Notes: generated from the letters alone by a model not told the origin. A DNA stretch of 64,000 nt from Leptospiraceae bacterium (GCA_024233835.1 JACKPC010000001.1:1541442-1605441), one strand, 5' to 3'. Shown: positions 5,975-64,000, counted from the first letter of the stretch. Made by a program: numbers and translations.

Positions 5975-6049
5975 GGGTGAACGACGGGATTTGAACCCGC
6001 GACCACCAGAGCCACAATCTGGTGCTCTACCAACTGAGCTACGCCCACC
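5975..6049 (-). tRNA. tRNA-His (anticodon GTG)
   Basis: Reverse complement folds as a cloverleaf with extra 5' G(-1) pairing to C73, which is typical of tRNA-His. Anticodon loop TTGTGGC, T-loop GGTTCAAATCC. Confidence 0.85.
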
Positions 6050-6058
6050 ATATATCTA

Positions 6059-6132
6059 TGACCCGGAAGGGATTCGAACCCCTGACCATCTGCTTAGAAG
6101 GCAGATGCTCTATCCAGCTGAGCTACCGGGTC
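6059..6132 (-). tRNA. tRNA-Arg (anticodon TCT)
   Basis: Acceptor GACCCGG/CCGGGTC, D-arm GCTCAGCTGGATAGAGC, anticodon loop CTTCTAA, T-loop GGTTCGAATCC. Confidence 0.85.
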
Positions 6133-6139
6133 AAATGGA

Positions 6140-6211
<72 letters not shown>

Positions 6212-47354: not shown

Positions 47355-47355
47355 A

Positions 47356-48513
47356 TCAGGTAAGTTCTCCTTTGAAGGCTTTTTGCAAGAGACAGTTAAA
47401 TAGATCATCGGCTTTTTGAAGGGAAGCCTCCGCATTTGCTTTCTGGGATTCAATTTCTTGAATCCGTTCCGCAAATTGGTTTTGAAGCTCGATGGGTGGG
47501 AGAGGGTAGTCCAAGTCTCTTAAAATTGCTAAGTTAATATTTTTTTGTGCAGATTCAGGTGCAGTTTCTTCGAGAATTTTTTGTAAAAATGACATCCAAA
47601 AATGAGCGTAAATATTATTAGTATTTTCATTTGGAATAAATCCAACAACACTATCAGGAAAACATGCATTAAAAGTTAATATTCCAGTTTTAGCAATATT
47701 AGCTGCAATAGTAATACATAAAGTTCCTGAAGGCCATTTTTTACTTTGTGCTAATCCTATATCTGAATAAGTCGAATCATAAGTTTTTACAAATATTCCA
47801 CTATTTGCTATATCTCCTGTCTGAATTAAGGGATGGGATCCTCCAAGTAGTTCAGGGGCATTTCTTGGTCTATGCTTTGATTTTCCTCTATCCAGTTTCC
47901 CCACTTCTGAAAACTTTACAACCTCCCAGCCTTTGGGGTTCACAACCGGGTCGCCGAACATGTCTAAGAATAGGCTCTGGGCCAGCTCGTCGTATTTGGT
48001 GAGAAGTGCTTTGGTCTTCTGCCGGAACTCATCCGCCGCATCCAGTATCGCCGCGATTTTCTTTTGTTCATCGAGGGGCGGCAGGGGGATTTTGATATCT
48101 TTCAAATATTTAAAATGTCGATTGTATCCAGTATCTGGAATATTTAATTGAGATAAAAAATAATAAATATATTTTGTGTAATTGTTTCTTTCTTTATCTT
48201 GTAATACCTTAACACCATCAGCACCCATAACAAATTTAAAATCTATATATTTGAAAATTCTTGTATGGTCTCCAAAAATTATATAAGGAGGTTCTGATTT
48301 TACTATTTTTTTTTCATCAGAAAGGTAACCTGCAATCTTATTTTTACCTTGATCAATAATAGGAATCTTTCCAGAACTTTCAAACTTTGATTTAGGTATT
48401 TTAAAATTGCCAGCAGAATTATCTTCTAAAACTTCTTCAAAATTTTTAATAACCCATGTTTTTGGTAGTTTACGTAATGTACTTAAATTCTGTACCAAAC
48501 TAAAATCTTTCAT
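47356..48513 (-). CDS. hsdS: Type I R-M specificity subunit HsdS (start moved to MKDFSL… with GGGAGG SD)
   Basis: Two TRDs separated and followed by conserved coiled-coil repeats (LPPLDEQKKIAAILD…, PLPPIELQNQFAERIQ…). The ORF-track N-terminus (MQCVSTGLQCVSTG) is just a REP element read through. Confidence 0.85.
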   Translation of the reverse strand: MKDFSLVQNLSTLRKLPKTWVIKNFEEVLEDNSAGNFKIPKSKFESSGKIPIIDQGKNKIAGYLSDEKKIVKSEPPYIIFGDHTRIFKYIDFKFVMGADGVKVLQDKERNNYTKYIYYFLSQLNIPDTGYNRHFKYLKDIKIPLPPLDEQKKIAAILDAADEFRQKTKALLTKYDELAQSLFLDMFGDPVVNPKGWEVVKFSEVGKLDRGKSKHRPRNAPELLGGSHPLIQTGDIANSGIFVKTYDSTYSDIGLAQSKKWPSGTLCITIAANIAKTGILTFNACFPDSVVGFIPNENTNNIYAHFWMSFLQKILEETAPESAQKNINLAILRDLDYPLPPIELQNQFAERIQEIESQKANAEASLQKADDLFNCLLQKAFKGELT

Positions 48514-48591
48514 TTCATACCTCCCGTTGTTTGAACAGGATTTTTGGATTTCCATCGTGGGTGGAATTGTGGTATTTGAATGGTTGGTTTT

Positions 48592-48647
48592 TCCGGTAGA
48601 TACGCATTGCAACCCGGTAGATACGCATTGCAATGCGTATCTACCGG
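48592..48647. repeat. REP-like element: direct duplication of CCGGTAGATACGCATTGCAA followed by its inverted copy, forming a ~36-bp perfect hairpin
   Basis: Seen directly. Located between hsdS and the RAYT gene. Confidence 0.65.
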
Positions 48648-48686
48648 GTTGAACCGATTGTGGTTGTTTATTTGCATATTATCTTC

Positions 48687-49388
48687 CTATAATTCCTTTT
48701 TGTTTGTGTTTGCAGGATTATCCCGGATATACCGACGCACATTTTCCAGTTCCCGTTGGCTGCGGATAATGCGGTCATAAAACCGGGATTGCCATTGGAA
48801 ATTTGGGTTTATGGTTTCATGAATCCGTCGCGTGGATTTGGATTTAAACCCCCGGATGATATTGGATATATTTTGAATGTACATATATGAATAATGATGG
48901 ATGGTATCAATCCCCGTAGGGACGCATTGCAATGCGTCCCTACGGGACAATGCGTCCCTACGGGGCAATGAATCCCCACGGGGCAATGAATCCCCACGGG
49001 GCAATGAATCCCCACGGGGCAATGAATCCCTACGGGGCAATGAATCCCCACGGGGCAATGAATCCCCACGGGGCAATGAATCCCCACGGGGCAATGAATC
49101 CCCACGACGGGGGCGGGGATAATCAATTTGGATGATGCCGTGGATATGATCCGGCATGATGATAAATTCGTCCAGATATACATTGGGTCGCATGATAATG
49201 GTTCTGTACCATTCCTCGTGGATGATTTGTCCGATGGTGGATAATATCATTTGATGATTAAAAATATTACCCAAATAGGGTTCGCGGTTCTTCGTGCAAA
49301 TGGTGATAAAATAATACCCCGGATGGGAATAATCCCAATTTTTTAACCTTGCTGATTCGACGCGGTATTTATTATTGTATAAGGTCAT
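48687..49388 (-). CDS. REP-associated tyrosine transposase (RAYT, IS200/IS605-like Y1 HUH transposase) with internal repeat expansion
   Basis: HUH motif (MPDHIHGII). Catalytic Tyr motif (WQSRFYDRII) and C-terminal …YIRDNP. Between them an in-frame (RGDSLP)n insertion encoded by REP-derived 18-bp repeats. Confidence 0.75.
   Translation of the reverse strand: MTLYNNKYRVESARLKNWDYSHPGYYFITICTKNREPYLGNIFNHQMILSTIGQIIHEEWYRTIIMRPNVYLDEFIIMPDHIHGIIQIDYPRPRRGDSLPRGDSLPRGDSLPRGDSLPRRDSLPRGDSLPRGDSLPRGDSLPRRDALSRRDALQCVPTGIDTIHHYSYMYIQNISNIIRGFKSKSTRRIHETINPNFQWQSRFYDRIIRSQRELENVRRYIRDNPANTNKKEL
48911..49108. repeat. REP-like 35-bp hairpin (CCCCGTAGGGACGCATTGCAATGCGTCCCTACGGG) followed by 8 tandem 18-bp units (CAATGAATCCCCACGGGG)
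   Basis: Seen directly. Lies inside the RAYT ORF and keeps all six frames open across the region. Confidence 0.85.
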
Positions 49389-49416
49389 TTGATTTACCTA
49401 TAATTCCTATATCAGT

Positions 49417-49872
49417 TTAGCCCTTTTTCTTTTTCAATTCCATTAGAATTTTAAGGTCCCATTTGTCCTGCTCTCTTTCTGTTTGCTTACTTTTAATTAA
49501 AGAATCCAGACCCAAATATGGAATTTCTAATTTATCTAATTCTAAAATACATACATCTTTCATTGCATCATCGTAAGTTAAAGACCAGGCACTGAGCAAA
49601 ATGTCTAACTCGGGTTCATCATATATTTTAATCACAATATTCTCTAAAAAGTCTTCAACTGTAACTTTTTCTAAATGAGGATATAATTCCTCGATACAGG
49701 AAATCACATTTTGAATGTTCTTTCTGTCGTTTTGAATTAACACGTCAATATCTTCTGTGGCGCGTACATACCCATGAAAAGAACAGGCTCTTGCACCCAC
49801 AATTACAAACTTAACATCATGCTTCTTTAGCAAAAAACAAACTCTTTGGATCTCATTCATAATGTTCCACAT
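49417..49872 (-). CDS. nucleotidyltransferase-fold protein (MNT-like), paralog of 50295-50837
   Basis: G-A…R-x-T-E-DIDVLI (GS/x…DxD) Pol-beta NTase-like motif. 151 aa. Confidence 0.5.
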   Translation of the reverse strand: MWNIMNEIQRVCFLLKKHDVKFVIVGARACSFHGYVRATEDIDVLIQNDRKNIQNVISCIEELYPHLEKVTVEDFLENIVIKIYDEPELDILLSAWSLTYDDAMKDVCILELDKLEIPYLGLDSLIKSKQTEREQDKWDLKILMELKKKKG

Positions 49873-50038
49873 ACCTTTTGAGAGAGAATAGGTAATGTTC
49901 CTCCCAGGTACGAAATTTAAAAATCTTTCCTTTCTTCTTTTGAATGGGAGAATTCTTTTTTAATTCAGCAATCAATTTTTCCTGAACTTCGAGATTCTCC
50001 AGGGCTGTTCTTTCTTTCTTATTGCCGATGATTTTCAT
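49853..50038 (-). CDS. small hypothetical protein (61 aa)
   Basis: ORF in a tight operon (20-nt overlap with the downstream gene). Confidence 0.3.
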   Translation of the reverse strand: MKIIGNKKERTALENLEVQEKLIAELKKNSPIQKKKGKIFKFRTWEEHYLFSLKRYVEHYE

Positions 50039-50050
50039 AAGTTTTCCATC

Positions 50051-50302
50051 TCACTTTTTCTCTAAGTTCCGAAGATGCTGGATGAACTTCTCTTTTTCTT
50101 CTTCAGAAAAATCATTACCGTAATACCTCAGAAAAAGACGGATTTTGATTTCTGTTTTGCTGAGCCCCGGTGGAAAAGAAGCCAATACAATTTTTCTTGC
50201 TGCTGTGCAACTGGCAAACCCCAGCTTCATCCTTTCTTCACCGGTAAGTTTCGCATAACGTTCTCTTAGCATCTGACGTATTTCGGGTGAGGTATCATCC
50301 AT
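50051..50302 (-). CDS. small hypothetical protein (83 aa)
   Basis: ORF. 8-nt overlap with the upstream NTase-like gene. Confidence 0.35.
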   Translation of the reverse strand: MDDTSPEIRQMLRERYAKLTGEERMKLGFASCTAARKIVLASFPPGLSKTEIKIRLFLRYYGNDFSEEEKEKFIQHLRNLEKK

Positions 50303-50837
50303 TTTCTAACTCCTGTAAAAGTTCATAAACTCCGAGTTCTTTACTATATTCATTCACATAGGCTTTATCAAAATTAGAAGAGAGAAGGTTTATTAAGTCC
50401 CGTTTTTGCATTTCGGATTGAGATTTTTTCATCCAATCTAATTTGGAAAGTATTAAGTCTTCCTTACTAACCATAAACGTTTCAAAATCTTCTATTACTA
50501 CTTTAACCCTTCTTTCAAACTCTAATCGTCTATAAGCTGTTTTTTTACGCAGGATGAAGTCTATTTTGATAATACTTTCATTGTGAATGATATTGAACAT
50601 TTTATTATTCTCAATAGCCAATTTGATAGCATCAGGATCAATATAATATACTTCAGAAAAAATTTTCTCAAGTATAGTAATATCTTCCTGCTGTAAATAA
50701 ACTACTATATCAATATCTCTGGTCATTCTCGGTTCAATATAAAAGTTCATTGCCATAGAGCCTGTAACCATAAATGGAATTTGATTCTCTATAAGTTTGT
50801 TAGAAACATCTTTTAATATTTTAATATCATCACTCAT
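50295..50837 (-). CDS. nucleotidyltransferase-fold protein (MNT-like), paralog of 49417-49872
   Basis: GSMAMNFYIEPRMTRDIDIVV motif. Shared C-terminal …Q-x-ER/KRD…DL…L segment with the 151-aa paralog. Confidence 0.5.
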   Translation of the reverse strand: MSDDIKILKDVSNKLIENQIPFMVTGSMAMNFYIEPRMTRDIDIVVYLQQEDITILEKIFSEVYYIDPDAIKLAIENNKMFNIIHNESIIKIDFILRKKTAYRRLEFERRVKVVIEDFETFMVSKEDLILSKLDWMKKSQSEMQKRDLINLLSSNFDKAYVNEYSKELGVYELLQELENG

Positions 50838-50849
50838 TCTCTAAGTTCC

Positions 50850-52328
50850 TCACTTCAAAAGCTTTTTCAAGACCTTCAATGTCTCATTTCGTTCTTTATC
50901 AAAGGCTTCGATTTCAGCAATGATTTCGGATGGTGGAGCATAGCTTTCTTCCTCGTATTCAACTTCTCTGTAGCGATTAATTGATAGGTCCCAGCCATTG
51001 GCCTCGTTTATTTCTTTTTTGGGAACTAAGAAACTCTTATCTGTCCGTTTACGTTTCTTCTCCTTAGGTAAATTAGAAAAACGTTGTATAATATCCGGAA
51101 TGTCATTATCTTTAATAGGATTACGCTTATCGTCCAAACTGTAACCATCCGCCTGCATATCATAAAACCAGATATTTTCTGTACCTCCGGTCCCGGTTTT
51201 GGTAAAATAGAGAATAGCTGTACTTACACCGGCATAGGGTTTAAACACGCCACTCGGCATAGAAATCACCGCATCGAGTTTTTGATTTTCCACAAGCTCT
51301 TTACGGATTTGCTTATGTGCTGTGGAACTTCCGAAAAGAACACCATCCGGTACTATCACAGAAGCTCTTCCACCCACTTTTAACATACGTAAAATCAATC
51401 CTAAGAATAATAACTCAGTTTTTTTAGATTTAACAATCGTTAAAATGGAGCCTTCAATTCCATCATAGTCCACACTGCCCTTGAAAGGAGGATTGGCCAG
51501 AATCAAAGTAAATTTGTCTCTATACTGTTTTGCATTTTCACTGAGTGAGTCCATTTTTTTTAGATCGGGATTTTCTATTCCGTGCAGGACCATATTCATC
51601 GCACCAATGCGAATCATGGTATCATCAAACTCAAGGCCATGAAACATGGTATCACTAAAATGCTTTCTAAACTTTTTATCATGAAACCAATCTTTATGAT
51701 TGTCCCGAAAATATTCACCGGCATTTACTAAGAATCCGGAGGTACCGGCTGCCGGGTCACAAATGATGTCCTCTCTTTTTGGTTCTACGATATCTACCAT
51801 CAGACGGATAATATGGCGTGGAGTGCGGAACTGTCCGTTTCTTCCGGCAGAAGCAATTTTGGAAAGCATATACTCATACAAATCACCCTTGGTATCCCGG
51901 TCTTTCATGTCGATTTTATCGATGAGTTGCACGACCTGATCCAGAAGTCTCGGAGTTGAAATGACAAAGGTTGCCCGTCCCATAAATTCGGCAAATGCTC
52001 CACCGGATTTACCCACCTGTTTCATGTGCTCAAAAACGGAAAGATTATCTACAGAGGATTTTGTGAAAAGTTCAAACATGGCTTCCGGGTCTTTATTTTT
52101 AAATGAATGCCAGCGAAGATTTTTTTGCTTGCTGGAGAATATTTTTACTTCCCGTGGAATGCCTAAGAGAACAGAATTTTCTTCATCGGCTAATTGGATT
52201 TCATCAATTCTGCGTAGAAAAAGGAGGTAGGTAAACTGCTCAATGACAGTTAAAGCATTGGTGATACCTCCCCAGGCAAAAGCCTCCCAGATTCTATCAA
52301 CTTGTGATTTTAATTCCCCTGTAATCAT
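50850..52328 (-). CDS. hsdM: Type I R-M N6-adenine methyltransferase HsdM
   Basis: N-terminal HsdM_N (…ELKSQVDRIWEAFAWGGITNALTVIEQFTYLLFLRR). Motif I DPAAGTSGFL. Motif IV NPPF. Confidence 0.9.
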   Translation of the reverse strand: MITGELKSQVDRIWEAFAWGGITNALTVIEQFTYLLFLRRIDEIQLADEENSVLLGIPREVKIFSSKQKNLRWHSFKNKDPEAMFELFTKSSVDNLSVFEHMKQVGKSGGAFAEFMGRATFVISTPRLLDQVVQLIDKIDMKDRDTKGDLYEYMLSKIASAGRNGQFRTPRHIIRLMVDIVEPKREDIICDPAAGTSGFLVNAGEYFRDNHKDWFHDKKFRKHFSDTMFHGLEFDDTMIRIGAMNMVLHGIENPDLKKMDSLSENAKQYRDKFTLILANPPFKGSVDYDGIEGSILTIVKSKKTELLFLGLILRMLKVGGRASVIVPDGVLFGSSTAHKQIRKELVENQKLDAVISMPSGVFKPYAGVSTAILYFTKTGTGGTENIWFYDMQADGYSLDDKRNPIKDNDIPDIIQRFSNLPKEKKRKRTDKSFLVPKKEINEANGWDLSINRYREVEYEEESYAPPSEIIAEIEAFDKERNETLKVLKKLLK

Positions 52329-52709: not shown

Positions 52710-53447
52710 ATGAAACGAAAATTGCTAAGCTATCTGTCTTTTTCAGTCTTACTCATTCTTTTCCTGAACTGTAGTAAATTAAAAAAGGAGAATCACAGTC
52801 TTTTGGAAATACTCCTGAGTATTCAATCTCAGTCGGAGGAAAATGCGGGGAGTTTTAATAAAAACCAAAGGGTTCCTGTTGAAAGTGATACGGATATAGA
52901 CATAGAAAAATTGGAAGACAATTCTCTGTTGTATTCCTTTGAGCTGATAGGAGGAAAAAAATATCTCTTTGAAGTATTAACAGATTCTAAATTACCCTAT
53001 AAACTTCATATTTATTTCGGAAGAGAGAAGTTGAGTTCCTATGAAAATCTATACTCCCGGAAGGCTTTTTCTTTTACCGCGAATCAGACAGGGACATACC
53101 AGCTCGGTCTTAAGTCTTCGGAAGACCCCTCGTCTTTGTGGAAACTTCTTCTTGTTTCGAAAGCCGCTCAGGGTGGAGGAATCTGTATGGATGCAGAAAC
53201 AGGAAGCTGTATGAGTTTTTCTAAAGAAACCTCAAATGAGTATAACCGCGGAGAATGTGTCTCTGATAATAATAAGAATCAATACAGCTATTATCATAAT
53301 TGCCCTGAATCGGGACGGGTAGGTTCCTGTACTTACTTTGCAGAATCCGGTCTTCGTACATGGGTATATTATAATACTTTGTATAATCGAGAAGCTGCAA
53401 GTCTTCACTGTGATAAGCAGAGTAGCGGAATTAATATTTTTCAATAA
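52710..53447 (+). CDS. lipoprotein, Cys-rich C-terminal domain (start at MKRKLL…, lipobox LFLNC)
   Basis: SD AAAGGAAG. Signal peptide plus lipobox. 8 Cys in the C-terminal 100 aa. Confidence 0.5.
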   Translation: MKRKLLSYLSFSVLLILFLNCSKLKKENHSLLEILLSIQSQSEENAGSFNKNQRVPVESDTDIDIEKLEDNSLLYSFELIGGKKYLFEVLTDSKLPYKLHIYFGREKLSSYENLYSRKAFSFTANQTGTYQLGLKSSEDPSSLWKLLLVSKAAQGGGICMDAETGSCMSFSKETSNEYNRGECVSDNNKNQYSYYHNCPESGRVGSCTYFAESGLRTWVYYNTLYNREAASLHCDKQSSGINIFQ

Positions 53448-53456
53448 GGATTAAAA

Positions 53457-53897
53457 ATGAAACGAATACTTTGTAAAATACTCATCACGTTTGGTCTGTT
53501 CCTAATCGGAACAGAAATTTTAGCCGGAGAACATAAGCTGACAATTCCGGCTTTGGGACTTGATACTTTTGCAGCTTATTCCATGCAGGAAAACTCTCTT
53601 GAGATGGAAGAAATCGGATTGAAGTTTCTCATGGAAATAGATACTTTCCGAATTTTATCTATTGGTCGGGATAAGATTCAAAAGAAGAGTGAATTCCATT
53701 TGAAAGGTTTATTTATATTCGGTTTAAATTCTTCTTCAAAACAAAAATATAAGCTTCTTTCCAAAGAGAATATGGATTCCTTTGAAATAGTTAGAAGCAC
53801 TGGAAATCTTTTGCTTTTTAAGCAGCCTCTTTATTTTCAAGTAAGAGAAATACGGCATATTTATCTTCAGATTCGTAATAAAGGAGAATCTGTATGA
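53457..53897 (+). CDS. hypothetical secreted protein (146 aa)
   Basis: Signal peptide. ATGA overlap with the giant gene start. Confidence 0.4.
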   Translation: MKRILCKILITFGLFLIGTEILAGEHKLTIPALGLDTFAAYSMQENSLEMEEIGLKFLMEIDTFRILSIGRDKIQKKSEFHLKGLFIFGLNSSSKQKYKLLSKENMDSFEIVRSTGNLLLFKQPLYFQVREIRHIYLQIRNKGESV

Positions 53898-56800
53898 AGT
53901 ATTTAGTTTATATTATATATTTATTCTGGAATATTGGAATGTTCGCTTATGACTTACCCGGACTTAGATATACCAAACCGGATATTATAAATGAAGTAAA
54001 GCCTCATATCGAAAGAGCGAATCTGGAAGAGAATGAAGTAGCCTGGAAAGAAAGTATGGAGACAGCAAAAACAAAACTATTTGAAAACTGGAATCAGGAC
54101 CTGGAAGGGGAAATTCAACAGATACTTTCCTCTATTCCTTCAACCGAAACCGGGATGGAAACAGAAATTTATACTTCGGAAATACTTAACTTTTTAAAAA
54201 TTCAAAAAGAAGCTTTATTGAAGCAATGGAACTCAGAAATGGAACAGTATATACTCGGGGAATTTTCTAACTTTTTAAATCTTCACACCGGAGGGGAAGA
54301 AGAAAAGGGAGAATCCTATGACCAGGAAGTTCTATCGATTGATGATTCTATAGCAAAAGAAATGCAGCCGGATACAGTTACGGAAGAATATTATCTAGGA
54401 AAAGATTACTGGGAAAAAAATGCAGCAGAACTTCTGGAAAGAAGAAAGAAATGGGAAGACGAATCTTTACAAACCATACAAAAAGGTATGGAGGAGTGGA
54501 ATCGACTGATAGGGGATTTGGAAACTGAAAAAGAAAAACAGGAAACCGGAATCGAAGAAAGGATTAATTATTGGAAGAATTATAAACTAAATTTGGAACT
54601 CTTACTTAAGAAGAATCGAGAAGACTTACAGGCCTATCTGGTAAATACAAGAAGTGAGATGAATCAGATGTTATCTACCGTTGATACAAATGAGGCTATA
54701 GTAGACAAGGAAGCCTTTAAGCAGTCTATCGGAAATTATTTGCAATTACAGGAAAGTCTGAATACAGCCTTAGCTTCCGGTGCTTCTCTGGAAGAGCTAT
54801 CTTTGCAAATATCAAAATATTACGATACAAAGAAATTAGAAGCTTCGAATAAAGCTGAATACTGGAAGGCTGAGAAAAGCATCACCGGAAAGATACATGA
54901 AGAAACGGTAAATTTTAATACAGATTTGGGTTATAGTAAAATCTATTGCGAAACGCTTCGAAGAGAAGGATTTGAAGATGCCTGTCCTTTCGGAACAGTT
55001 GATTCTCCCACATATAAGGCTATGAGCATGACAGAAGATGGAACCATGCTTGGCTGGCATATGGATGCTTCCACAAAAGAACTGTATTTAGGAACGAGAT
55101 ATTATTACAATACAGACTCTTATAAAATACCTATATACGGGTATTATACAGAAGTTAATAATGGTTTCTCGGAAGAGATTCACGGGCCTGTATATGATGT
55201 CAGGTTTGATAATACCGGGTTTGATATGATAAAGTATCAGGAAAATATTAGAATATTAGGTATTATAAGAAAAACGGGAACTCAGGATCTCAGTCGTTTT
55301 CTGAATGGAAATATCAGGATAGACTCACAGTCCAGCCAACTAAAAGCTAAGGATCCGGGCAGTGGAGAGTGGAGATATTTTACCGAAGCAGGAACTCATT
55401 CTTCCGAATTCAAGTATTATGGAGAAAAGATAACTATGGACTGGCAGATTCCTGTTTCGACTGCAAATGTCCGAAATGATCTAATTATAGAAACCAATTA
55501 TTCTTATACAGATAGGAATGCAGAGGCGAATGAAACATTCTGGAATAATTTGTCGCAAAAGTATTCTTCCTATGCTGAGAACTTTCGCAACCTTTCTATA
55601 GCTTTAAGCGGTATAGAAAAGAAAGTTAGTGATTTCTTGAATATTTATGATTCCAGTCTGGAAAGTCTTACAAACTATAAAGCTGAAATTGCAGAGAGCA
55701 TGAACAAAGAGATTGCCGCTCAGGTGAAGGAAAGAGATATTTGGATTGAAGAAGTATATGGCTATACACTTGATGATTTTACAAATTCAGTCGGAGAAAA
55801 TGTAAATTCTGAATACAGACTGGGGCAAAAAGAATGGGAGGATGCCTTCCGAGCCTATAGAAGAAGAGAATTGACATGGTTGGAAGAAGCTGCAAAAGAA
55901 TTGGATAAGAAAGTCTACGGGCCGAATGAGAGTGAAACAAGTCTTTTAAGTAAAATTGAAACTTCTACAAAAAGCATGAAAGAAGATATTCTGGAATCTG
56001 AAGAAAGAGTGGAAGATCTAAAGCAGTATGCTGAAACACAGAGGGATTCTTTTTACTTTAAAAGTGCAAAGGAGCTAATTGAAGAAGCTGAACTTTTAAA
56101 AGAACAGGAACTTATAAGTAATCAAAAAGCCATGCACTTATCCGAAGAGGCTCTAAATTCAAGTATAAGGGCAGAAAACTATCTTCTTGCAGAGAAGGAT
56201 TCTTTGGTTCTTGCTTCATTGATTAAATCCGAATTTGGAGAAGAAGCTTCTGTTGTAGAGCCGGATATTGAGAGGTTTCAAACCGAACAAGTTTATTGGA
56301 AAAATGAAATAGAAGGAGCGGATGGAGGTTTTGCTTATAAAAAGCGTATTCGATTAGCAGAACTGGAATTACCTGTGCTAAAGCAGAACTCTCTGGATTT
56401 ACAAAAAGCGGAGAACTTACAGGCTCAGATGATTGAAAAAGAAAAGAAATCTTTTCTTGCCCTGAATGAGAAATATAAAAAGGCTGAATCCTATTATAGC
56501 TCCTACGAAAGTGAAAAAGCAAACGCTGAGCTGGAAAATGCTGAGTATTATTATCATTTAAGTATTCGAACCCGGGAAGAAGCCAGGGAGAGTTTTTATA
56601 AGGAATATAAAGAAAATCTTAAAGATGCAGAAACATCATTTAATGAAAGTAAATTGATATATTCCTATAGTGCTATGGAGAATTATCTCAAAAGAAAAAA
56701 ATCTTTATTAGAATATGATTATGCTATATTAATCGCTCAAGTAAAAGAAGATGCTTTCAAACAGGAATCTGATTTAAACTCAGAAATTAAAGACATTCTA

Positions 56801-59800
56801 TCGAAAAGCCGCATAAACAGAACAAGGCAACAAGAGAATTTACAGGATCTCGGAGCCTTATTGGAGCTTGCTAAAAGGCTTTCGACTTCGAGTATTCCTG
56901 AAATCATGAACTGGAAAGAAGAAGCTTTACAGCTAAGCTATAAAGGTCCTATGAATCTGAATCCCAAACGATTGGATGTTTCCAATCTTTCTTACCTGGA
57001 AGCGGAATATCGGAAGGGTATCTTACACTATAATGAACTGGAAAAGCATTCCTTTCTAACAGAAGAAGAAGTGCAGTCCATTAATAGCCTGTTTGCAGGT
57101 ATGAGTGAAAGCTTAAATAGTGCCGGTAATGAGTCGATTCGAAACTACACAAACTCAATTATGGAAAAGTTAATTAGCAAAGCTAAGAATCTTGGTTCCG
57201 GTTTGCAGGATAAACTGATTAAGGAGCTAAACTCGGATGTAAAGTATAAATATTTGCGGGATAAAGGATACGAGTTTCAAAAAGTATCCTCAGATATAAT
57301 TCGGATAGGGAAAAACATAAAAAATGGGGAGCTCAATGCCTATGGTTATGCCATGGAAGAAAATACCTATGGACCGCAGTATACCTATTTACAGTTTACG
57401 ATTCAGACCGAATACAGAGTCCCGGCTTTTTCTCTTGGGAATGCAGATTCTATATTTCGGGAAGAATTTAAAGCTCTTGAATTGCAGGGGAGCTTAGAAA
57501 GTATTCAAGAATATTATAATTCAGTGGAATCCGAAATCGCTCTTTTCTTTGATAAGGCTAAAGAAATTGAAGACGCCTATAAAGCTGAGGAATTGAATAT
57601 ACAAACTCTTGAAGATAACTACATTTCATTAAAAGATAGCTATGTAGAGAACTATCAGGGTCTTGAACCAGCTTATCGCACATCCTATGACGCAAGTATC
57701 TCTGACTTCAAGAAGAGCATGGAGAGCATGGAATATACTTTTTCCGGAAAACAGGGAAAACGTGTATTGAAGGGGAAAGCGAATGTGCCAACTCCTATCG
57801 GGGTCTTGCCTATGGATATAGTTTACGGAGAGCAGACTCTGGAATTACCTTCTGATTTTACATTAGCTGATTTAAAACGTTCTTATGAGTTAAGCGGTCA
57901 GGGGAGTTCGTATGTAGCGAACACGATTCAGGAATCCAATGACGATTTTTCAAAATACCTTAGAGAAAAGATAAACGCTTTACAGAAAGTTTATGAAGCG
58001 AATGAAAGAGACAAAGAAGAAAAAGGTTTTCTTTTTGATGTGCTGAGCGGAGCTGCCGGAAGTTCCGGGAGTGTGAAAAAGGCGATTCAAACTTCCTTGA
58101 AGAATGAAGTTCAGTCGAGAGTATCGGCTCAGATAGCAAAAGATTCCGGACTTCCCACCGAATTTGTCTCAGCTTTAATGGGAGGAAAGAAACCTCAGGA
58201 AGCAGCCAGGTCTTATGTTGAATCGAAGGCTAAAACTGAACTGGCAAAAGCTTTGAATCTTCCACCGGAATTGATGATGAGCTACCTGGAAAAGAACGGT
58301 GTGGTTAAGAAAAAAGATCCACTGCGTCAATATACAAATGCCGGTAGTGCTTTACTTGTAAGCGGTGCTGCCGGTCTTGTATTGGGGCCTTCTGCCGCTT
58401 TACTTCCCCTTGCAGTAGAGGTTTTAAATAGTACTGCTTCGAAAAGCTTAGGGAAAAATAACCCCTTAACTAAGGGCGTAAATTCCTATTCAAATTTTAT
58501 GGATAGAACAGTAAGAAATGATGTAAGTGATTTCTTATATAAGAACGATCAAATAATTGATACAACTGTAACAGTAGGGGCTCACGTAACTACTGCTATG
58601 GCCTATGGAACCGCAGCCGTGGGGACGGCTTTTGCCTGGACGGGTGTGGGAGCAGGGATTGCCGCCGGAGGAGTAAGTCTGGGGATGGCAGTAAGTTCAG
58701 GTTACGCGGCCTATAAGGCTGCTCGTGGAGCTGTATTTGGTGGAACAAAGGGAGCTCTGGCCGGTGTACTTACAGCCGGTGCTACTGTTAGCCAGGTTGT
58801 TGGTGTTACTTATGATGTTTCCTATACTTATGACGGAGGTTTTGCGGGAGGTTTAGGACTCAGTCTTCCGGGAACCGGAAGCTTCCTTAGTGCCGGAGTT
58901 CGATTTGGAGAGGGAAGGAAAGCTTCCTATAGATTGGGAGCTGAATACGGAGGACTGAATCTGGGTCTAAATATGGATGGACAGCAAATCCAGTCCGCCT
59001 CTTTATCTTATGGAACAAGAGTTAGTGATGTAAAAATGAATCTGGGCTATAATTGGTCAGCTACGAATGGAAATGGACTGGGATTGAGTCTTGGGAATGA
59101 AAACGTCAAGATAGGTATAGATCACAGCGAATATGGTGGCACTGATTTTTCTCTGGATGGAAGCTTGAAGCTGAACCCTTTATTAACTACAAATGCGGGT
59201 ATAAGCTGGAATACTAAGGGAAAATGGGGTGTTGATGCGTCTATTGAATATAAGGAACAGAGAAAGCGAGGGGAATACTCTGACATATTATCTAACGGAG
59301 AATTCGGTATTCACTATGATGGTAGAAATATAAGTGCTAATTTAGATCTTGCCGGTACCAACGCATTTCGATATGAAAATGGTACTGTAATCGGAAATAC
59401 AAATTTTGCCCAGGAATTTGGTAACGCTTATTTTAAGAAACGTACTCTTGAACAGATGGAAGTGGAAAGAGAAATAAAAGAAGAGGAAGAAAGAAGGCAG
59501 GAAGAAGAACGCAGGAAAGAGTCCAGACGTAATTTCTTGAATTCCCTGGGGATTGTTGAAGAGAAAGATGAAGATGAAACCGATACAGAAGAAGATAAAC
59601 TGGAAGAAGAAAAGCGTACTCTGTCTATTGTGTATATAAAAACTACTACAGAAGAAGCGGAAGATTATATTCAGGATCTGGAAAAGAGCGGGAAGTATAC
59701 GGCTGAAGAAATAGCTGATCTAAAGAACTCATTAAAAACAGCACAGAAAAGTTGGTCGGACAAAGATAAGAGAACTGAGATGTTAGAAGCCACTAAAAAC

Positions 59801-60775
59801 CTGGATCCGCAGAAACTCTATGAAATGGGAATGGGAGATGAGGAAATTGAGCATTTATATTCATCTCTTGTTACGGCAGAAGGCAGGAAGAGTAATCGGG
59901 AATACTCCGAACTCTCAGACAAAACAGCAGAGGCTGCAAGGGAGAAAAAAAGAGAGGCAGAAAGAAAATATAAAGAAACAGTAGAGCCCCTTTTAAAACT
60001 AATGGGCTCGGATTATGAAACGGAAATGGCGGTTGCTGAAAAAATGAGACAGGCGAGGGAAACAGGACTTACAGATATATTCTCGGAAGAAGAACTCATG
60101 CAGATATTTAGAGAGAGTTCCGGCAGTCAAAAACTCAAGCAGAATAGGATGTATGATTCTTATGAAGGCATGAAGTTGATTGCAGAAACCGATGCAAACC
60201 AGAAAAAAGGTGGTGGCGAACATGAAGTTGTAAAAGATATCGCGAAAGAAATTAAAGAAGGTGTATTTACAACCGGAAACAAGGAACTGGATAAGAAAAT
60301 TAAAGATAATGCAGCTAAAGATAATATTGCGAATACTTTATGTTGGGCGAATCAAATAATATTTGCCAGTAATAAGGCCAGAAGAGATATGGGGCAAGAA
60401 ACCTTATCTATGAAAGATGCCTATAAGTTGTTATTAACTAAAGGAGGTATTGAAGCGAATAAAATGACATCTGTTTTATACGATAAAGCTTATGAAGTAC
60501 TGGCACCGAGTGGCTATGAGACTAACATTGTCAGGGAACAGAAGGATTTTGAGGAGTTTGTAAAAAACTCTCCCGATAATTCCTACTTTCATGTTCGCAC
60601 TACCTACGGAGACTCTTTTACCGGGGCAGGACATTCTACCGGTATTTATAAGTCGGGAAATGAATTACGCAGAGTGGATACTATGCAGTATACAACGGTT
60701 CCGGACTTTGATGAAAAATGGGAGAAGAGAAAAGTCACCATGATAGAAAGGGTTTATTATCAAAAAACAAATTAA
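53894..60775 (+). CDS. giant (2293 aa) secreted/membrane-associated coiled-coil protein with central glycine-zipper hydrophobic segment and Gly/Asn-rich beta region
   Basis: N-terminal hydrophobic segment. About 1400 aa E/K-rich predicted coiled coil. GxxxG/AxxxG-rich hydrophobic helices around aa 1490-1600 (e.g. GVGAGIAAGGVSLGMAVSSGYAAY). Then alternating G-x-N/L beta-like repeats, a second coiled coil and a unique C-terminus. Confidence 0.7.
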   Translation: MKYLVYIIYLFWNIGMFAYDLPGLRYTKPDIINEVKPHIERANLEENEVAWKESMETAKTKLFENWNQDLEGEIQQILSSIPSTETGMETEIYTSEILNFLKIQKEALLKQWNSEMEQYILGEFSNFLNLHTGGEEEKGESYDQEVLSIDDSIAKEMQPDTVTEEYYLGKDYWEKNAAELLERRKKWEDESLQTIQKGMEEWNRLIGDLETEKEKQETGIEERINYWKNYKLNLELLLKKNREDLQAYLVNTRSEMNQMLSTVDTNEAIVDKEAFKQSIGNYLQLQESLNTALASGASLEELSLQISKYYDTKKLEASNKAEYWKAEKSITGKIHEETVNFNTDLGYSKIYCETLRREGFEDACPFGTVDSPTYKAMSMTEDGTMLGWHMDASTKELYLGTRYYYNTDSYKIPIYGYYTEVNNGFSEEIHGPVYDVRFDNTGFDMIKYQENIRILGIIRKTGTQDLSRFLNGNIRIDSQSSQLKAKDPGSGEWRYFTEAGTHSSEFKYYGEKITMDWQIPVSTANVRNDLIIETNYSYTDRNAEANETFWNNLSQKYSSYAENFRNLSIALSGIEKKVSDFLNIYDSSLESLTNYKAEIAESMNKEIAAQVKERDIWIEEVYGYTLDDFTNSVGENVNSEYRLGQKEWEDAFRAYRRRELTWLEEAAKELDKKVYGPNESETSLLSKIETSTKSMKEDILESEERVEDLKQYAETQRDSFYFKSAKELIEEAELLKEQELISNQKAMHLSEEALNSSIRAENYLLAEKDSLVLASLIKSEFGEEASVVEPDIERFQTEQVYWKNEIEGADGGFAYKKRIRLAELELPVLKQNSLDLQKAENLQAQMIEKEKKSFLALNEKYKKAESYYSSYESEKANAELENAEYYYHLSIRTREEARESFYKEYKENLKDAETSFNESKLIYSYSAMENYLKRKKSLLEYDYAILIAQVKEDAFKQESDLNSEIKDILSKSRINRTRQQENLQDLGALLELAKRLSTSSIPEIMNWKEEALQLSYKGPMNLNPKRLDVSNLSYLEAEYRKGILHYNELEKHSFLTEEEVQSINSLFAGMSESLNSAGNESIRNYTNSIMEKLISKAKNLGSGLQDKLIKELNSDVKYKYLRDKGYEFQKVSSDIIRIGKNIKNGELNAYGYAMEENTYGPQYTYLQFTIQTEYRVPAFSLGNADSIFREEFKALELQGSLESIQEYYNSVESEIALFFDKAKEIEDAYKAEELNIQTLEDNYISLKDSYVENYQGLEPAYRTSYDASISDFKKSMESMEYTFSGKQGKRVLKGKANVPTPIGVLPMDIVYGEQTLELPSDFTLADLKRSYELSGQGSSYVANTIQESNDDFSKYLREKINALQKVYEANERDKEEKGFLFDVLSGAAGSSGSVKKAIQTSLKNEVQSRVSAQIAKDSGLPTEFVSALMGGKKPQEAARSYVESKAKTELAKALNLPPELMMSYLEKNGVVKKKDPLRQYTNAGSALLVSGAAGLVLGPSAALLPLAVEVLNSTASKSLGKNNPLTKGVNSYSNFMDRTVRNDVSDFLYKNDQIIDTTVTVGAHVTTAMAYGTAAVGTAFAWTGVGAGIAAGGVSLGMAVSSGYAAYKAARGAVFGGTKGALAGVLTAGATVSQVVGVTYDVSYTYDGGFAGGLGLSLPGTGSFLSAGVRFGEGRKASYRLGAEYGGLNLGLNMDGQQIQSASLSYGTRVSDVKMNLGYNWSATNGNGLGLSLGNENVKIGIDHSEYGGTDFSLDGSLKLNPLLTTNAGISWNTKGKWGVDASIEYKEQRKRGEYSDILSNGEFGIHYDGRNISANLDLAGTNAFRYENGTVIGNTNFAQEFGNAYFKKRTLEQMEVEREIKEEEERRQEEERRKESRRNFLNSLGIVEEKDEDETDTEEDKLEEEKRTLSIVYIKTTTEEAEDYIQDLEKSGKYTAEEIADLKNSLKTAQKSWSDKDKRTEMLEATKNLDPQKLYEMGMGDEEIEHLYSSLVTAEGRKSNREYSELSDKTAEAAREKKREAERKYKETVEPLLKLMGSDYETEMAVAEKMRQARETGLTDIFSEEELMQIFRESSGSQKLKQNRMYDSYEGMKLIAETDANQKKGGGEHEVVKDIAKEIKEGVFTTGNKELDKKIKDNAAKDNIANTLCWANQIIFASNKARRDMGQETLSMKDAYKLLLTKGGIEANKMTSVLYDKAYEVLAPSGYETNIVREQKDFEEFVKNSPDNSYFHVRTTYGDSFTGAGHSTGIYKSGNELRRVDTMQYTTVPDFDEKWEKRKVTMIERVYYQKTN

Positions 60776-60786
60776 AGGAAAAACAA

Positions 60787-61416
60787 ATGAAGAAAACAGG
60801 TACAAAGAGTATATTCTGGATTGCTTTTATATTGATAGCGATCTTGAATTGTAAAGGAAAAAAGGGCAGTTTCAAGGAGTATTGTTTTGGTGCTTTCGGA
60901 AACCCCGTGTTTTATACCGAACCGGGGAATAAGGGAAAATACAAAAAGATGGGTTGTATGCAGGGAGAAATAATGGAAACCTTTCAGGAATACTCGGATC
61001 CTAACAGAATAGAGAAAAAAGCAAGCTGGAAGTATGCGAGTTGCGGAAGGTTTGAGGGTTGGATAGAAACGAATGATTTATTTTGTTCTAAGGACAGGGC
61101 CTATTTAGAAGAAAGCTGGAAGCTGGGAAAGTTATTTGATGAAAGATATCAGAGACCGAGGGGATATGATTTCGATGGCAAAATCCTGATGATTAATCTG
61201 AATATACGGGAGCATGTATTTTCCCTGAGTATGTCCAAATTTGATATTTCTTTCAGGGAATATCAAATTATCCAGAAAGATACCTGGAGGGTGCAAAATA
61301 AAACCGAATCTTTGCTCTTGCAGTATAAGCCCGGAGGAATTATCAGTTTTACAGTAGAGAAAGACCCGAATAACAAGTTAAGCTTTTTAAATGGCAGAGA
61401 ACTTCAGGGTAAATGA
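60787..61416 (+). CDS. SH3b-like lipoprotein (start at MKKTGTK…, lipobox ILNC)
   Basis: Lipobox. SH3b-like pattern (…VFYTEPG…GKYKKMG…GWIETNDL). Paralog of 61443-62069. Confidence 0.5.
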   Translation: MKKTGTKSIFWIAFILIAILNCKGKKGSFKEYCFGAFGNPVFYTEPGNKGKYKKMGCMQGEIMETFQEYSDPNRIEKKASWKYASCGRFEGWIETNDLFCSKDRAYLEESWKLGKLFDERYQRPRGYDFDGKILMINLNIREHVFSLSMSKFDISFREYQIIQKDTWRVQNKTESLLLQYKPGGIISFTVEKDPNNKLSFLNGRELQGK

Positions 61417-61442
61417 AATAGGAAGAAAATGAGGAAAAACTA

Positions 61443-62069
61443 ATGAATAGAATAATGGAAAAAATTTTAAGTCTTATATTTTTATCTGTCCTGATGACAG
61501 CTTGCAAAGAAAAGCGTATTCCTCTTGAATACTGTGTGCATTTTTCGGATATGGCTCTTTATGCTGAGCCCAAAGTAGATAAGTCGAAACAGTTGGGAAG
61601 CTGCAAAAAAGAGAAACCTTTTGAAGAGTATGATTCGGAATCTATAGAACAGGGAAAAAAATATAATACCTGGCTAAATGTGGTATGCTCCGGAAAAGAA
61701 GGCTGGGTTTTATCTGAAGGAAGTTATTGCCATAGGGATAATGGCTTTATTGAAGCCAACCTGAATAAGATAAAGCTGGCCAGACAATTTAATAAGGAAT
61801 TGGATCAGGGAGAAAATTACGGCGGAGCTTCATTTGGAGTTATGGTGCATAAGGATGACCTTCGAGCTGTGATATATTTGGGAAAACAGTATTTCTTTTC
61901 AAATTATACTCGGATTGGCTACATGCAATGGAGGCTTACGAATGAGTTTGGGGAATCTATAGTCGTAAAAAGGGTAAACCGAACCATATACTTTCAGGTA
62001 GAAAAAGATCCGGATGAAAGGTTCAGAGAACTCAGAACGGAGAGTTTTACCGCAGAACCACAGCTTTAA
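61443..62069 (+). CDS. SH3b-like lipoprotein, tandem paralog
   Basis: Lipobox LMTAC. Shared motifs YC-x-F, GSCKKEKPFEEY vs GCMQGEIMETFQEY, VEKDP. Confidence 0.5.
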   Translation: MNRIMEKILSLIFLSVLMTACKEKRIPLEYCVHFSDMALYAEPKVDKSKQLGSCKKEKPFEEYDSESIEQGKKYNTWLNVVCSGKEGWVLSEGSYCHRDNGFIEANLNKIKLARQFNKELDQGENYGGASFGVMVHKDDLRAVIYLGKQYFFSNYTRIGYMQWRLTNEFGESIVVKRVNRTIYFQVEKDPDERFRELRTESFTAEPQL

Positions 62070-62112
62070 ACGGTATTTTAGATAAACAGAAAATACACAG
62101 TTCCTAAATTAT

Positions 62113-62146
62113 CCTGCGGAAAACTCTTTTTCCGTAGGCTTTTTTT
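62113..62146 (+). terminator. rho-independent terminator closing the giant-protein operon
   Basis: Stem CCTGCGGAAAA…TTTTCCGTAGG followed by CTTTTTTTAT. Confidence 0.55.
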
Positions 62147-62233: not shown

Positions 62234-62845
62234 TTAACCCGGATTTTGATTTATGAATTGTTGTATGAGTTCTATATTATTTTTAACACCAAATTTCTTA
62301 CGTAAATGTGCTGCATGATATTCTATGGTTCTTTGAGATTTCCCCAGTTCTTTTCCGATTTCTTTTGCTGATTTTCCGAGACTGAGTTGCTTTAGAATCT
62401 GCTGTCTGATTTGCCCTTCTTCATCTGATAGAATATTAGAATATAATAGATGCTTAATTTCCTGACTATAATAAGTTTCTCCGAGAGAGATGTTATAAAG
62501 TGCTTTGAGGATAGTTAGCAGTCCTTCTGATTTCAAAATATAGCCATCGACACCGATTTTTTTAGCCTGATTAATAAAGATTAATTCACTATGCAGAGAA
62601 AATATAACTCTTTTTATTTCAGGATATTGTTTTTTTACTTCTTTGAGAAATTCAATTCCATTCATTCCCGGAATATCAATATCGCTGATGATAGCGAAGA
62701 TATGGGATTTGCTTTTTTTAAGATACTGTAAGGCCTGTCTTGCCCTGGTGAATTTTTCTATGATTTGAAAGTTTGCTTTTTGGCTCAGGATTTCAATACC
62801 TTCTAATACAATCTCATGGTCATCGACTAAAATTATATTCTTCAT
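62234..62845 (-). CDS. two-component response regulator, NarL/FixJ (LuxR HTH) family
   Basis: REC domain (DDHEIV…D55 region ISDIDIPGMNG…K) and C-terminal LuxR HTH (LSLGKSAKEIGKELGKSQRTIEYH). Confidence 0.85.
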   Translation of the reverse strand: MKNIILVDDHEIVLEGIEILSQKANFQIIEKFTRARQALQYLKKSKSHIFAIISDIDIPGMNGIEFLKEVKKQYPEIKRVIFSLHSELIFINQAKKIGVDGYILKSEGLLTILKALYNISLGETYYSQEIKHLLYSNILSDEEGQIRQQILKQLSLGKSAKEIGKELGKSQRTIEYHAAHLRKKFGVKNNIELIQQFINQNPG

Positions 62846-62987: not shown

Positions 62988-64000
62988 ATGAAGTCTATTT
63001 TATTCCTGAGTTTTTTATGTAGCTTCGGGCTTTTAAGTGCAGAGAGTTTGGATGGGTACGTGAAAAGAACCCTTGCCGGAGCTAAAAATGGTAAAAAGGC
63101 AATTTTTAATATGAATGAACCTTCAGTTCCGGAGGTAAAAAGTCGCAGTCTGGAAAAAGAAGATCCGCTTGGTGAGGAACTAATTCGAGCGGTGAGTGAG
63201 GGAGACTTAAATAAAGTGAAAAGTCTGGTTGGCAGAGGAGCCAATGTGAATTACGGTCGAAGAAGCGGTCGTTGTTTTAAAGGGGCAACCCCACTCTGGG
63301 AGGCTACTAATCAATATAAATACGAAATAGCTTCTTATCTGGTTTCTAAAGGAGCAGATGTAAATAAGCAAGATGACTATGGTTGGACTCCCTTATATTT
63401 AACTGCACAAAAAGGCCCCTGGACATTGCTAAATTATTATTAAAAAATGGTGCGAATGTAAATCATCAAACAAAAGATGGAAATAGTATTCTTATGGCAG
63501 CTGCTACAGGTAAATATGAAGTCTTCATGGAAGTGCTACATTATAATCCTAATCTGAAATTGAAAGATGATAAGGGTTTAACCGTGAATTCATACGTGAT
63601 TAATGAATTGGCTGAAGTGAAAGAACAAACAATTAGAGGCTCAAAGAGATATAAGTATTTAACAGAAACGCTTAAAATTTCACCTGAAAATGTATTCGCC
63701 AGTCGATCCTGGAGAGAACCATGGCTAAGATCACGTTTAGTTGTTTTAAATACAGGAATTCAAAATCATAAAAGTTGTTTTGAGCAATTAAAAAGTAAAA
63801 CCTCCATGCGCTGGGAAACAAAACGTGCAAGTTCCGGAAAAACAATTGGGTATGGTACATTGAGGCTTACCCCTGCCACTTATAATAGTATTTCTGGAGT
63901 AAAAACAAGTTACTTCAATATTGTGCAAATCAATGATAAGCGTAAGGGGCAAGAAGTTAAAGGGAATATTTATTCTACTGAATCCACACTTGAATTAAAA
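62988..64000 (+). pseudogene. ankyrin-repeat secreted protein, frameshifted at a C4 tract (63416-63419); continues in +1 frame to window end
   Basis: Signal peptide. ANK repeats (GATPLWEATNQYKYEIASYLVSKGADVN; GWTPLYLTAQKGP/W…). The ORF stops at 63443, but inserting one C restores …AQKGPLDIAKLLLKNGANVNHQTKDGNSILMAAATGKYEV…, open to nt 64000. Confidence 0.6.

Follow-up and report, generated by a model that had tools for sequence, protein, structure and literature searches.

Within a 64,000-nucleotide stretch of a Leptospiraceae bacterium genome (GCA_024233835.1 JACKPC010000001.1:1541442-1605441; this whole stretch is the window, and positions are counted from its first letter), open-reading frame (ORF) calling places an operon of five co-directional genes on the + strand at 52710-62069, and it is this operon, and the giant protein encoded by its third gene, that we analyse here (Table 1). 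The genes are separated, in operon order, by 9, -4 (an ATGA overlap), 11 and 26 nucleotides and are followed by a hairpin (62113-62138) and T-run which form the strongest terminator-like site within 52-64 kb. An earlier reading of this DNA, made from the sequence alone (the sequence-only reading), had described five co-directional genes with tiny gaps or overlaps and a terminator behind them, and both descriptions are borne out by the coordinates. The exact protein sequences of the operon also occur in public metagenome-assembled genomes (MAGs) labelled 'Leptospiraceae bacterium', every one annotated as hypothetical, the giant among them (MCP5499671.1). Searches of the five proteins against Pfam, NCBIfam, PHROGs and PADLOC returned nothing above threshold and one near-threshold match, of the giant to the NCBIfam family TIGR04388 ('Lepto_longest').

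Table 1. Features of the operon and of its giant protein (aa, amino acids; positions within the window)
Feature	Residues	Position	Strand	Description
Gene 1		52710-53447	+	245-aa predicted lipoprotein, first gene of the operon
Gene 2		53457-53897	+	146-aa protein with an N-terminal signal-like segment
Giant gene		53894-60775	+	2293 aa, divergent TIGR04388-family polymorphic-toxin-like protein
Scaffold	1-1475	53894-58318	+	Signal-like N-terminus, then mostly helical, heptad-compatible and conserved
Conserved block	1280-1475	57731-58318	+	Most widely conserved part across the family
Glycine-zipper segment	1480-1635	58331-58798	+	Hydrophobic, Gly/Ala-rich, predicted helices
Beta module	1637-1840	58802-59413	+	~16 antiparallel predicted strands, conserved end motif
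Linker	1841-2084	59414-60145	+	45% Asp, Glu, Lys or Arg; helical; between beta module and C-terminal domain
C-terminal variable domain	2085-2293	60146-60772	+	Predicted papain-like cysteine peptidase fold
Cys2150	2150	60341-60343	+	Putative catalytic residue
His2247	2247	60632-60634	+	Putative catalytic residue
Asp2262	2262	60677-60679	+	Putative catalytic residue
Gene 4		60787-61416	+	209-aa lipoprotein; alternative longer ORF from 60718 possible
Gene 5		61443-62069	+	208-aa lipoprotein, paralogue of gene 4
Intrinsic-terminator-like hairpin		62113-62146	+	11 pairs, then T-run; closes the operon

The giant is zoned in composition. Behind a hydrophobic, signal-like N-terminal segment (by inspection), residues 1-1475 are 30% charged and poor in Gly and Pro, residues 1637-1840 are Gly/Asn-rich and beta-like, and residues 2085-2293 have an ordinary globular composition. 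The sequence-only reading had put about 60% of the protein in coiled coil; this is roughly right, a crude, uncalibrated heptad test giving 62% for aa 1-1475 and 48% for the whole giant. The protein holds three cysteines in all (352, 364 and 2150), and the pair Cys352/Cys364 (codons at 54947-54949 and 54983-54985), the sole cysteines outside the catalytic domain, lies in an insert (aa ~330-620) with less charge and many aromatic residues. In the Leptospira noguchii giant the equivalent region is Cys-rich, and conservation between the tandem paralogues of the locus L021 falls to 25-48% at their aa ~420-650. It is our speculation that this insert is a disulfide-stabilised receptor-binding domain. 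The linker gave no Pfam match and holds no PT-HINT domain, and a motif search found neither VENN nor DPxGL nor a demarcation motif of the Leptospira type.

The giant is a divergent relative, or outlying subfamily, of TIGR04388 rather than a curated member, since collinear homology and an aligned central module accompany its sub-cut-off score. BLASTP alignments with relatives are collinear at 22-27% identity over aa ~5-1475, with E-values down to 1e-80, and an exhaustive HMMER search with aa 1101-2293 returned 35 relatives. The earlier statement that no known family could be assigned does not stand: the giant matches TIGR04388 just under threshold and its homologues are annotated members, four of which (P0015, P0025, P0026 and P0028) score 59-87 bits, above the cut-off, with full-length relatives so annotated in L. 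kobayashii (WP_109020106.1) and L. santarosai (WP_407936686.1). Matches of the exhaustive search concentrate in the conserved block at aa 1280-1475, whose motif 'A(E/K)(A/D)(T/S)GLPxxF(V/I)SAL(x)GG' is kept even in distant PT-HINT-bearing relatives, and the central module aligns family-wide through a conserved end motif, GNTNF in the window giant and ANTNF in Leptospira. A faster word-index search gave no match for the full-length giant, because candidates were swamped by coiled-coil words, a single match for the central region alone and none for the C-terminal domain; a metagenome scan with the conserved-block alignment confirmed no relative, and a sequence search of the giant against the PDB gave no match. 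Homologues occur in several Leptospira species in variable copy number, many copies being fragmented. The 5.9-Mb contig behind the locus L022, which at 58.5% GC is not a Leptospira, carries at least three paralogues (2492, 1898 and 1938 aa), which takes the family outside the Leptospiraceae. With the Leptospira proteins the window giant shares the collinear aa 1-1475, a glycine-zipper and beta-repeat module with an N-T-N-F-type motif at its end, a variable C-terminal domain set off by a charged linker, and a small gene downstream; it differs from them in its longer linker (~240 aa), its C-terminal domain, its flanking genes and its more hydrophobic, more amphipathic beta strands. In the papers searched we found no mention of TIGR04388 and no description of the scaffold itself.

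At the level of sequence, the TIGR04388 family behaves as a polymorphic toxin system. The sequence-only reading had proposed checking whether homologue C-termini vary, and they do so sharply, even between tandem paralogues of one genome: the tandem giants of L021 are 55-73% identical to aa ~1760-1900 and ~13% identical thereafter, and those of L022 are 60-90% identical to aa ~1480-1530 and <12% identical thereafter. This combination of a shared core with sharply divergent C-termini in tandem paralogues is the decisive pattern. Both loci consist of tandem giant-plus-small-gene pairs (L021 1-15304, with giants of 2327 and 2274 aa and downstream genes of 75 and 160 aa; L022 8001-23166). In Pfam searches, the C-terminus of P0026 comprises PT-HINT followed by Peptidase_M23, P0038, P0044 and P0046 carry PT-HINT followed by other domains, and P0018 ends in Peptidase_C39_2; by inspection, the C-termini of other homologues are M23-like or LAS-like or carry HExxH or GxSxG motifs. 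Directly behind P0046, whose C-terminus is weakly T5orf172/URI-like, come an Imm26 gene and, next to it, an Imm51 gene, and both Imm26 and Imm51 are listed as immunity families for Tox-URI1 (Zhang et al. 2012, PMC3482391). A PT-HINT domain has also been noted in the large L. interrogans protein LA_3725 (PMC4751964). The locus L002 holds an orphan C-terminal module only (the equivalent of aa ~1465-1844 plus the end domain) among housekeeping genes, and L006 holds a second partial copy ~3.4 kb downstream of its main gene; both orphan modules begin at or upstream of the aa 1280-1475 block, a layout like that of contact-dependent inhibition (CDI) and Rhs loci. The genes directly downstream of the giants in L006, L021 and L022 encode small lipoproteins unrelated to each other or to genes 4 and 5, as would be expected of cognate periplasmic immunity proteins.

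These features agree with the general build of polymorphic toxin systems (Zhang et al. 2012), namely a conserved N-terminal trafficking part and a hypervariable C-terminal enzymatic domain, to which the family adds a small neighbouring gene, orphan modules and, in relatives, PT-HINT. The window giant departs from that build in that its scaffold matches no Pfam trafficking or repeat domain (PAAR, VgrG, LXG, RHS, filamentous haemagglutinin, MafB, SpvB etc.) and in having no pre-toxin domain, which is optional in the definition; Leptospira is not mentioned by name in the survey (PMC3482391). The Leptospira homologues P0017-P0032 carry a conserved motif, 'N(K/R/Q)NNxEQGAxxIxGxG...RRE(D/G/E)', ~30-60 aa after ANTNF and just before the variable domain, which is absent from the window giant and which may be a recombination boundary or processing site of the Leptospira subfamily. 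On this evidence we consider it likely that the operon is a polymorphic toxin system built on the TIGR04388 scaffold.

A housekeeping role in the cell envelope or cytoskeleton would account for part of the same evidence. The giant would then be a structural periplasmic or outer-membrane protein whose C-terminal hydrolase serves to remodel the wall of the cell itself, as in division, flagellar insertion or shape, with the lipoproteins as regulators or partners, and its long coiled-coil-like stalk, the peptidoglycan-type hydrolases such as M23 at many family C-termini and the presence of homologues in several Leptospira species all suit such a protein. So does the outcome of a neighbourhood scan that had been suggested together with the sequence-only reading, which recognised no type I, type V or type VI secretion system genes among ORFs of >=120 aa at 33.6-47.5 kb and from 62.2 kb to the window end (the first 28 kb and 28-33.5 kb were listed only). 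We nevertheless hold this role unlikely, given that C-termini are swapped between tandem paralogues, that homologues carry PT-HINT and, in one case, a nuclease-like end with Imm26 and Imm51 neighbours, that orphan modules exist, and that copy number varies with many copies fragmented. The locus is also non-syntenic: no homology was found between the genes flanking the operon and those flanking the Leptospira loci. Invariant C-termini, universal synteny and the lack of any toxin-like domain had been named at the outset as the signs of a structural protein, and none of the three was found.

The payload of the window giant, in the polymorphic toxin reading, would be its C-terminal domain. In an exhaustive HMMER search residues ~2085-2265 match five small stand-alone proteins only, and the alignment with these relatives shows an invariant Cys (TLC[NW]xN), His (H[AST]T) and Asp-Thr. 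An AlphaFold2 model built with this alignment is confident (predicted local distance difference test, pLDDT, 80.8; predicted template modelling score, pTM, 0.82) and, in answer to a check proposed with the sequence-only reading, shows the giant's C-terminus as a papain-like (clan CA) cysteine peptidase fold with a conserved Cys-His-Asp, in which the Cys stands at a helix start and the His and Asp on or beside adjacent strands. Its structural neighbours (scores in brackets) include staphopain C (8oig, 10.2), the C39 domain of PCAT1 (8vp3, 9.5), SpvD (5lq7, 9.0), the pseudomurein endoisopeptidase PeiR (8z4h, 9.0) and a CdiA-CT (8.5), with ComA C39 (5xe8) and deubiquitinase-like and UFM1 proteases as further neighbours. 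Sequence identity to clan CA papain-like peptidases is just 9-14%; the domain has no Pfam match and no PDB match by sequence or profile, and together with the phage-context proteins it forms a small family of its own. A fold search of BFVD with the domain gave weak generic papain matches only.

This list of neighbours also bears on whether the target is a eukaryote. A papain-like C-terminus that attacks a host or grazer in the manner of virulence proteases (SpvD, YopT or the staphopain type), with the lipoproteins as chaperones or unrelated, would be in keeping with the staphopain, SpvD, deubiquitinase-like and UFM1 proteases among them, and PT8, a Leptospiraceae-specific polymorphic toxin domain, is reported to be toxic to fungi (bioRxiv 10.1101/2021.10.19.465003). 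However, the neighbours equally include C39 bacteriocin-processing peptidases, a pseudomurein endoisopeptidase and a CdiA-CT, the closest sequence relatives lie in phage-like bacterial contexts, the two exported lipoproteins directly downstream fit periplasmic self-protection, and the source is an environmental MAG, so that we regard a eukaryote-aimed effector as improbable.

The stand-alone relatives (P0043 in L012-L017, P0039 in L018-L019 and P0035 in L011) occur in phage or tail-like clusters: one lies downstream of terminase and Mu-F-like genes, one directly after Baseplate_J and a baseplate wedge gene, and one beside a DNA methylase. P0043, whose index entry spans 33 blocks and which was read on 24 metagenomic contigs, carries a hydrophobic segment at its N-terminus and keeps a constant gene order, its neighbours being a 65-aa gene and a DUF5131 gene. 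The papain-like domain looks like a mobile cassette, as its sole relatives in sequence searches are stand-alone genes in such clusters. These proteins have no PHROG family, and their candidacy as endolysins was not confirmed, the position after baseplate genes fitting a lysin or an injected effector alike. A metagenome scan with the toxin-domain alignment confirmed no relative, and a tblastn search of phage genomes with this domain found nothing.

Phage tape-measure proteins such as T5 Pb2 combine a long helical build with a Gly-rich hydrophobic stretch and a cell-wall hydrolase at the C-terminus. The giant shows the same order of helical rod, hydrophobic segment and hydrolase, and stand-alone relatives of its C-terminal domain adjoin baseplate genes or cluster with terminase, which together could suggest a domesticated tape-measure-like protein left by a phage or tailocin. 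Yet there is no PHROG or Pfam tape-measure match, no phage genes were seen among the scanned flanking ORFs (the neighbours being restriction-modification, toxin-antitoxin and regulator genes), the giant begins with a signal-like segment and contains a beta module similar to outer-membrane barrels, and the family has polymorphic C-termini with immunity genes. With no support in sequence or context, we rejected this origin as most improbable. An anti-phage-defence reading of the operon was likewise considered and rejected.

For a polymorphic toxin, the part of the giant that would matter for delivery is the central module. The hydrophobic GxxxG/AxxxG-rich and the Gly/Asn-rich peptides quoted in the sequence-only reading are present, and small-xxx-small motifs are enriched fivefold at aa 1480-1640 (18 against 3.7 expected if evenly spread). 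The glycine-zipper segment (aa 1480-1635) aligns as homologous across the family and is a candidate membrane-interacting or barrel-plug region. An AlphaFold2 model of aa 1440-1850, from 11 sequences, places ~16 long antiparallel strands behind it, with a pLDDT of 70-82 for aa ~1710-1840. The beta module of the window giant has strong dyad amphipathicity (z = 5.0 against shuffles) with aromatics at strand ends, closes on the conserved motif '(G/A/S)N(T/S/Q/K)(N/D)(F/Y)' and resembles outer-membrane barrels, the CdiB and FhaC barrels being among its structural neighbours. We propose aa 1637-1840, with moderate confidence and from the model, as a candidate outer-membrane barrel or sheet. Pfam gave no match to an autotransporter or intimin/invasin barrel family. 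Like autotransporters and inverse autotransporters (type Va/Ve: Hbp, BrkA, intimin), the giant is a single polypeptide with a putative Sec signal and a candidate outer-membrane beta domain adjoining a helical segment that could occupy the pore; unlike them, its putative barrel is internal rather than terminal, has ~16 predicted strands rather than 12 and carries large domains on both sides.

Downstream of the giant, genes 4 and 5 are paralogues (27% identity, E 1e-14) with lipoprotein signal peptides by inspection (...AILNC and ...LMTAC), which confirms the earlier description of two tandem lipoprotein paralogues. The label 'SH3b-like' given with it did not hold up: its sole support is a match of gene 5 to Pfam SH3_3 at E 0.19 and 12.4 bits against a cut-off of 27, gene 4 matches no family in Pfam, NCBIfam or PADLOC, and a two-sequence profile of both found nothing in the PDB. 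Genes 4 and 5 are probably periplasmic immunity proteins, in view of their position, that of an immunity gene, and of the analogy with other loci.

Upstream, gene 1 has a lipobox (LFLNC, by inspection) and a Cys-rich C-terminal half; it matches nothing in Pfam, NCBIfam, PHROGs or PADLOC and has no similarity to the genes flanking the Leptospira homologues. Gene 2 has a hydrophobic, signal-like N-terminus (by inspection), and the overlap of its stop with the giant's start suggests translational coupling. Small genes overlapping the giant's start from upstream recur in L021 (209 aa) and L024 (138 aa), but BLAST did not demonstrate their homology to gene 2 (E 16). Genes directly upstream of giants in L006 (3395-4675), L021 (7375-8004) and L024 (2286-2702) share a C-terminal 'NRKxMRYYxI..GPP'-type motif, the L006 and L021 genes matching at BLAST E 1e-6, and may be a conserved accessory protein of the giant system; a possible counterpart of 'RYYxI..GPP' in gene 2 is not significant.

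Taken as a polymorphic toxin system, the operon could work as follows. Since no secretion-system genes were recognised in the scanned flanks, any export function probably lies within the giant or the small co-transcribed genes. The giant would be exported by Sec via its N-terminal signal-like segment, and its first ~1475 residues, conserved family-wide by homology, would form a long, largely helical stalk. The glycine-zipper helices and the ~16-strand beta domain of the moderate-confidence model may then insert into an outer membrane and carry the C-terminal part across, the membrane being either the producer's, in an autotransporter-like manner, or the target's, as proposed for CdiA FHA-2. 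Beyond the charged linker would follow the exchangeable payload, here a putative papain-like cysteine peptidase (Cys2150, His2247, Asp2262). Its most likely place of action is the periplasm of rival bacteria, given the peptidoglycan hydrolases found in many sister proteins and the lipoproteins encoded downstream. One or both paralogous lipoproteins most likely protect the producer by neutralising the peptidase. The two small upstream genes may, more speculatively, assist export or assembly, a role suggested by the analogy with MafA and by the recurrence, in L021 and L024, of a small gene whose end overlaps the start of the giant.

Two known systems are close in design. FHA-2 of CdiA is proposed to insert into the target outer membrane and lies directly upstream of the pre-toxin and toxin domains (PMC13625785); the giant would share with CdiA the plan of a very large Sec-exported protein in which an extended stalk leads to a beta domain proposed to insert into an outer membrane and then to a pre-toxin region and C-terminal toxin, with a downstream immunity gene. 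Both also have orphan toxin modules in the family, and for the giant there are CdiB/FhaC barrels and a CdiA-CT among the structural neighbours of its domains. In contrast to CdiA, it has no two-partner secretion domain or haemagglutinin repeats (Pfam), no VENN motif and no sequence homology, its stalk is helical rather than a beta-helix, and no CdiB/Omp85-like gene is present among the five operon genes. In Neisseria, secretion of MafB depends on the outer-membrane protein MafA, whose gene shares its genomic islands with mafB (PMC7738311), and the gene order of an exported lipoprotein gene, a Sec-dependent polymorphic toxin and one or more immunity genes would be the same here. This order raises the possibility of a MafA-like role for gene 1 and/or gene 2, and gene 1 may by analogy be a secretion or assembly partner of the giant. 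Pfam nevertheless finds nothing in the operon that resembles MafA or the N-terminal domain of MafB, and the giant is several times as large and comes with a beta module of its own.

Several points weigh against the polymorphic toxin reading or parts of it. The score of the giant against TIGR04388 (39.7 bits, E 1.1e-10, aa 51-619) falls below the 45-bit cut-off. By Pfam and motif search the giant lacks PT-HINT and a recognised cleavage motif, and we found no second copy or orphan module of it in the window. No fusion of the papain-like domain to another carrier appeared in exhaustive, word-index or metagenome searches, so the modularity of this domain is seen through its stand-alone phage-context relatives only, and the domain could be a processing peptidase or a eukaryote-aimed effector. 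Genes 4 and 5 have no detectable relatives in the Leptospira flanks or the PDB. Fold prediction of the central region, a further check proposed with the sequence-only reading, returned the predicted strands from a model that is poor overall (pLDDT 51), with its first strands below 50 and its glycine-zipper helices at low confidence, and dyad amphipathicity is weak in the Gly/Ser-rich Leptospira homologues (z 0.1-2.5). The earlier proposal of a secreted, membrane-interacting, polymorphic-toxin-like giant with immunity or partner lipoproteins downstream is supported all the same, toxicity, immunity, secretion and localisation being inferred.

A polymorphic toxin with its immunity protein is a well-known kind of system and TIGR04388 is an existing database name; new here are the functional assignment of the TIGR04388 scaffold, the delivery module that it may hold as an internal barrel, and two components without an existing family, the papain-like payload and the pair of lipoproteins. 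A bolder proposal, possible but doubtful, is that the scaffold constitutes a self-contained toxin-delivery route across outer membranes, with an internal ~16-strand barrel module, forming a new type V- or CDI-like branch in Leptospiraceae and at least one unrelated high-GC lineage, with new papain-like toxin and lipoprotein immunity families. In such a route the module, set behind glycine-zipper helices in a single Sec-exported polypeptide, would export that polypeptide's own C-terminal toxin or would insert into a neighbour's outer membrane to inject it.

The operon is flanked on the left by a type I restriction-modification cluster (43908-52328, - strand: hsdR 43908-47474, hsdS 47356-48633, hsdM 50850-52328) with mobile and toxin-antitoxin-like genes inserted between hsdS and hsdM, namely an IS200-like Y1 transposase ORF, a DUF6036 nucleotidyltransferase and an AbiEii-type nucleotidyltransferase with an 83-aa partner. 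The Y1 transposase-like ORF (48687-49388, - strand) contains at 48929-49106 an 18-bp unit, GCAATGAATCCCCACGGG, repeated 9.9 times at 95% identity and encoding '(P)RGDSL' repeats; of the Y1_Tnp profile the C-terminal half alone matches, and the repeat may interrupt or extend the transposase domain. At the annotated 5' end of hsdS (48593-48633) a perfect 21-bp tandem duplication, CCGGTAGATACGCATTGCAAC, encodes 'LQCVSTG' twice, and because the transposase ORF carries the similar peptide 'LQCVPTG', this suggests a repetitive extragenic palindromic (REP)-like element associated with the Y1 transposase. On the right lies a convergent LuxR-type response regulator (62234-62845, - strand), and just past it a small ankyrin-repeat protein with a signal peptide (62988-63443, +). 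Ankyrin-repeat proteins serve as immunity or self-protection proteins against some toxins. In Bdellovibrio an ankyrin-repeat protein is reportedly a case of self-protection. An ankyrin-repeat immunity type, Imm-ank, is listed in the polymorphic toxin survey (PMC3482391). Elsewhere in the window there is a cluster of three tRNAs (His-GTG, Arg-TCT and Pro-TGG; 5975-6211, - strand).

The Leptospiraceae include major zoonotic pathogens, yet little is understood of their interbacterial weapons or of how their proteins are exported across the unusual outer membrane of spirochaetes. For the 'longest protein' family of Leptospira, until now a name without a function, we propose the role of a carrier of polymorphic toxins, in which the membrane-inserting module is conserved while the payloads, many being cell-wall hydrolases, can be exchanged, and the C-terminal domain of the window giant with its two lipoproteins would add a new papain-like toxin/immunity pair without a Pfam family. 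If the internal beta module does move the payload across a membrane, it would represent a new and compact principle of delivery, on a par with CdiA or the autotransporters, and a possible chassis for engineered payload delivery.

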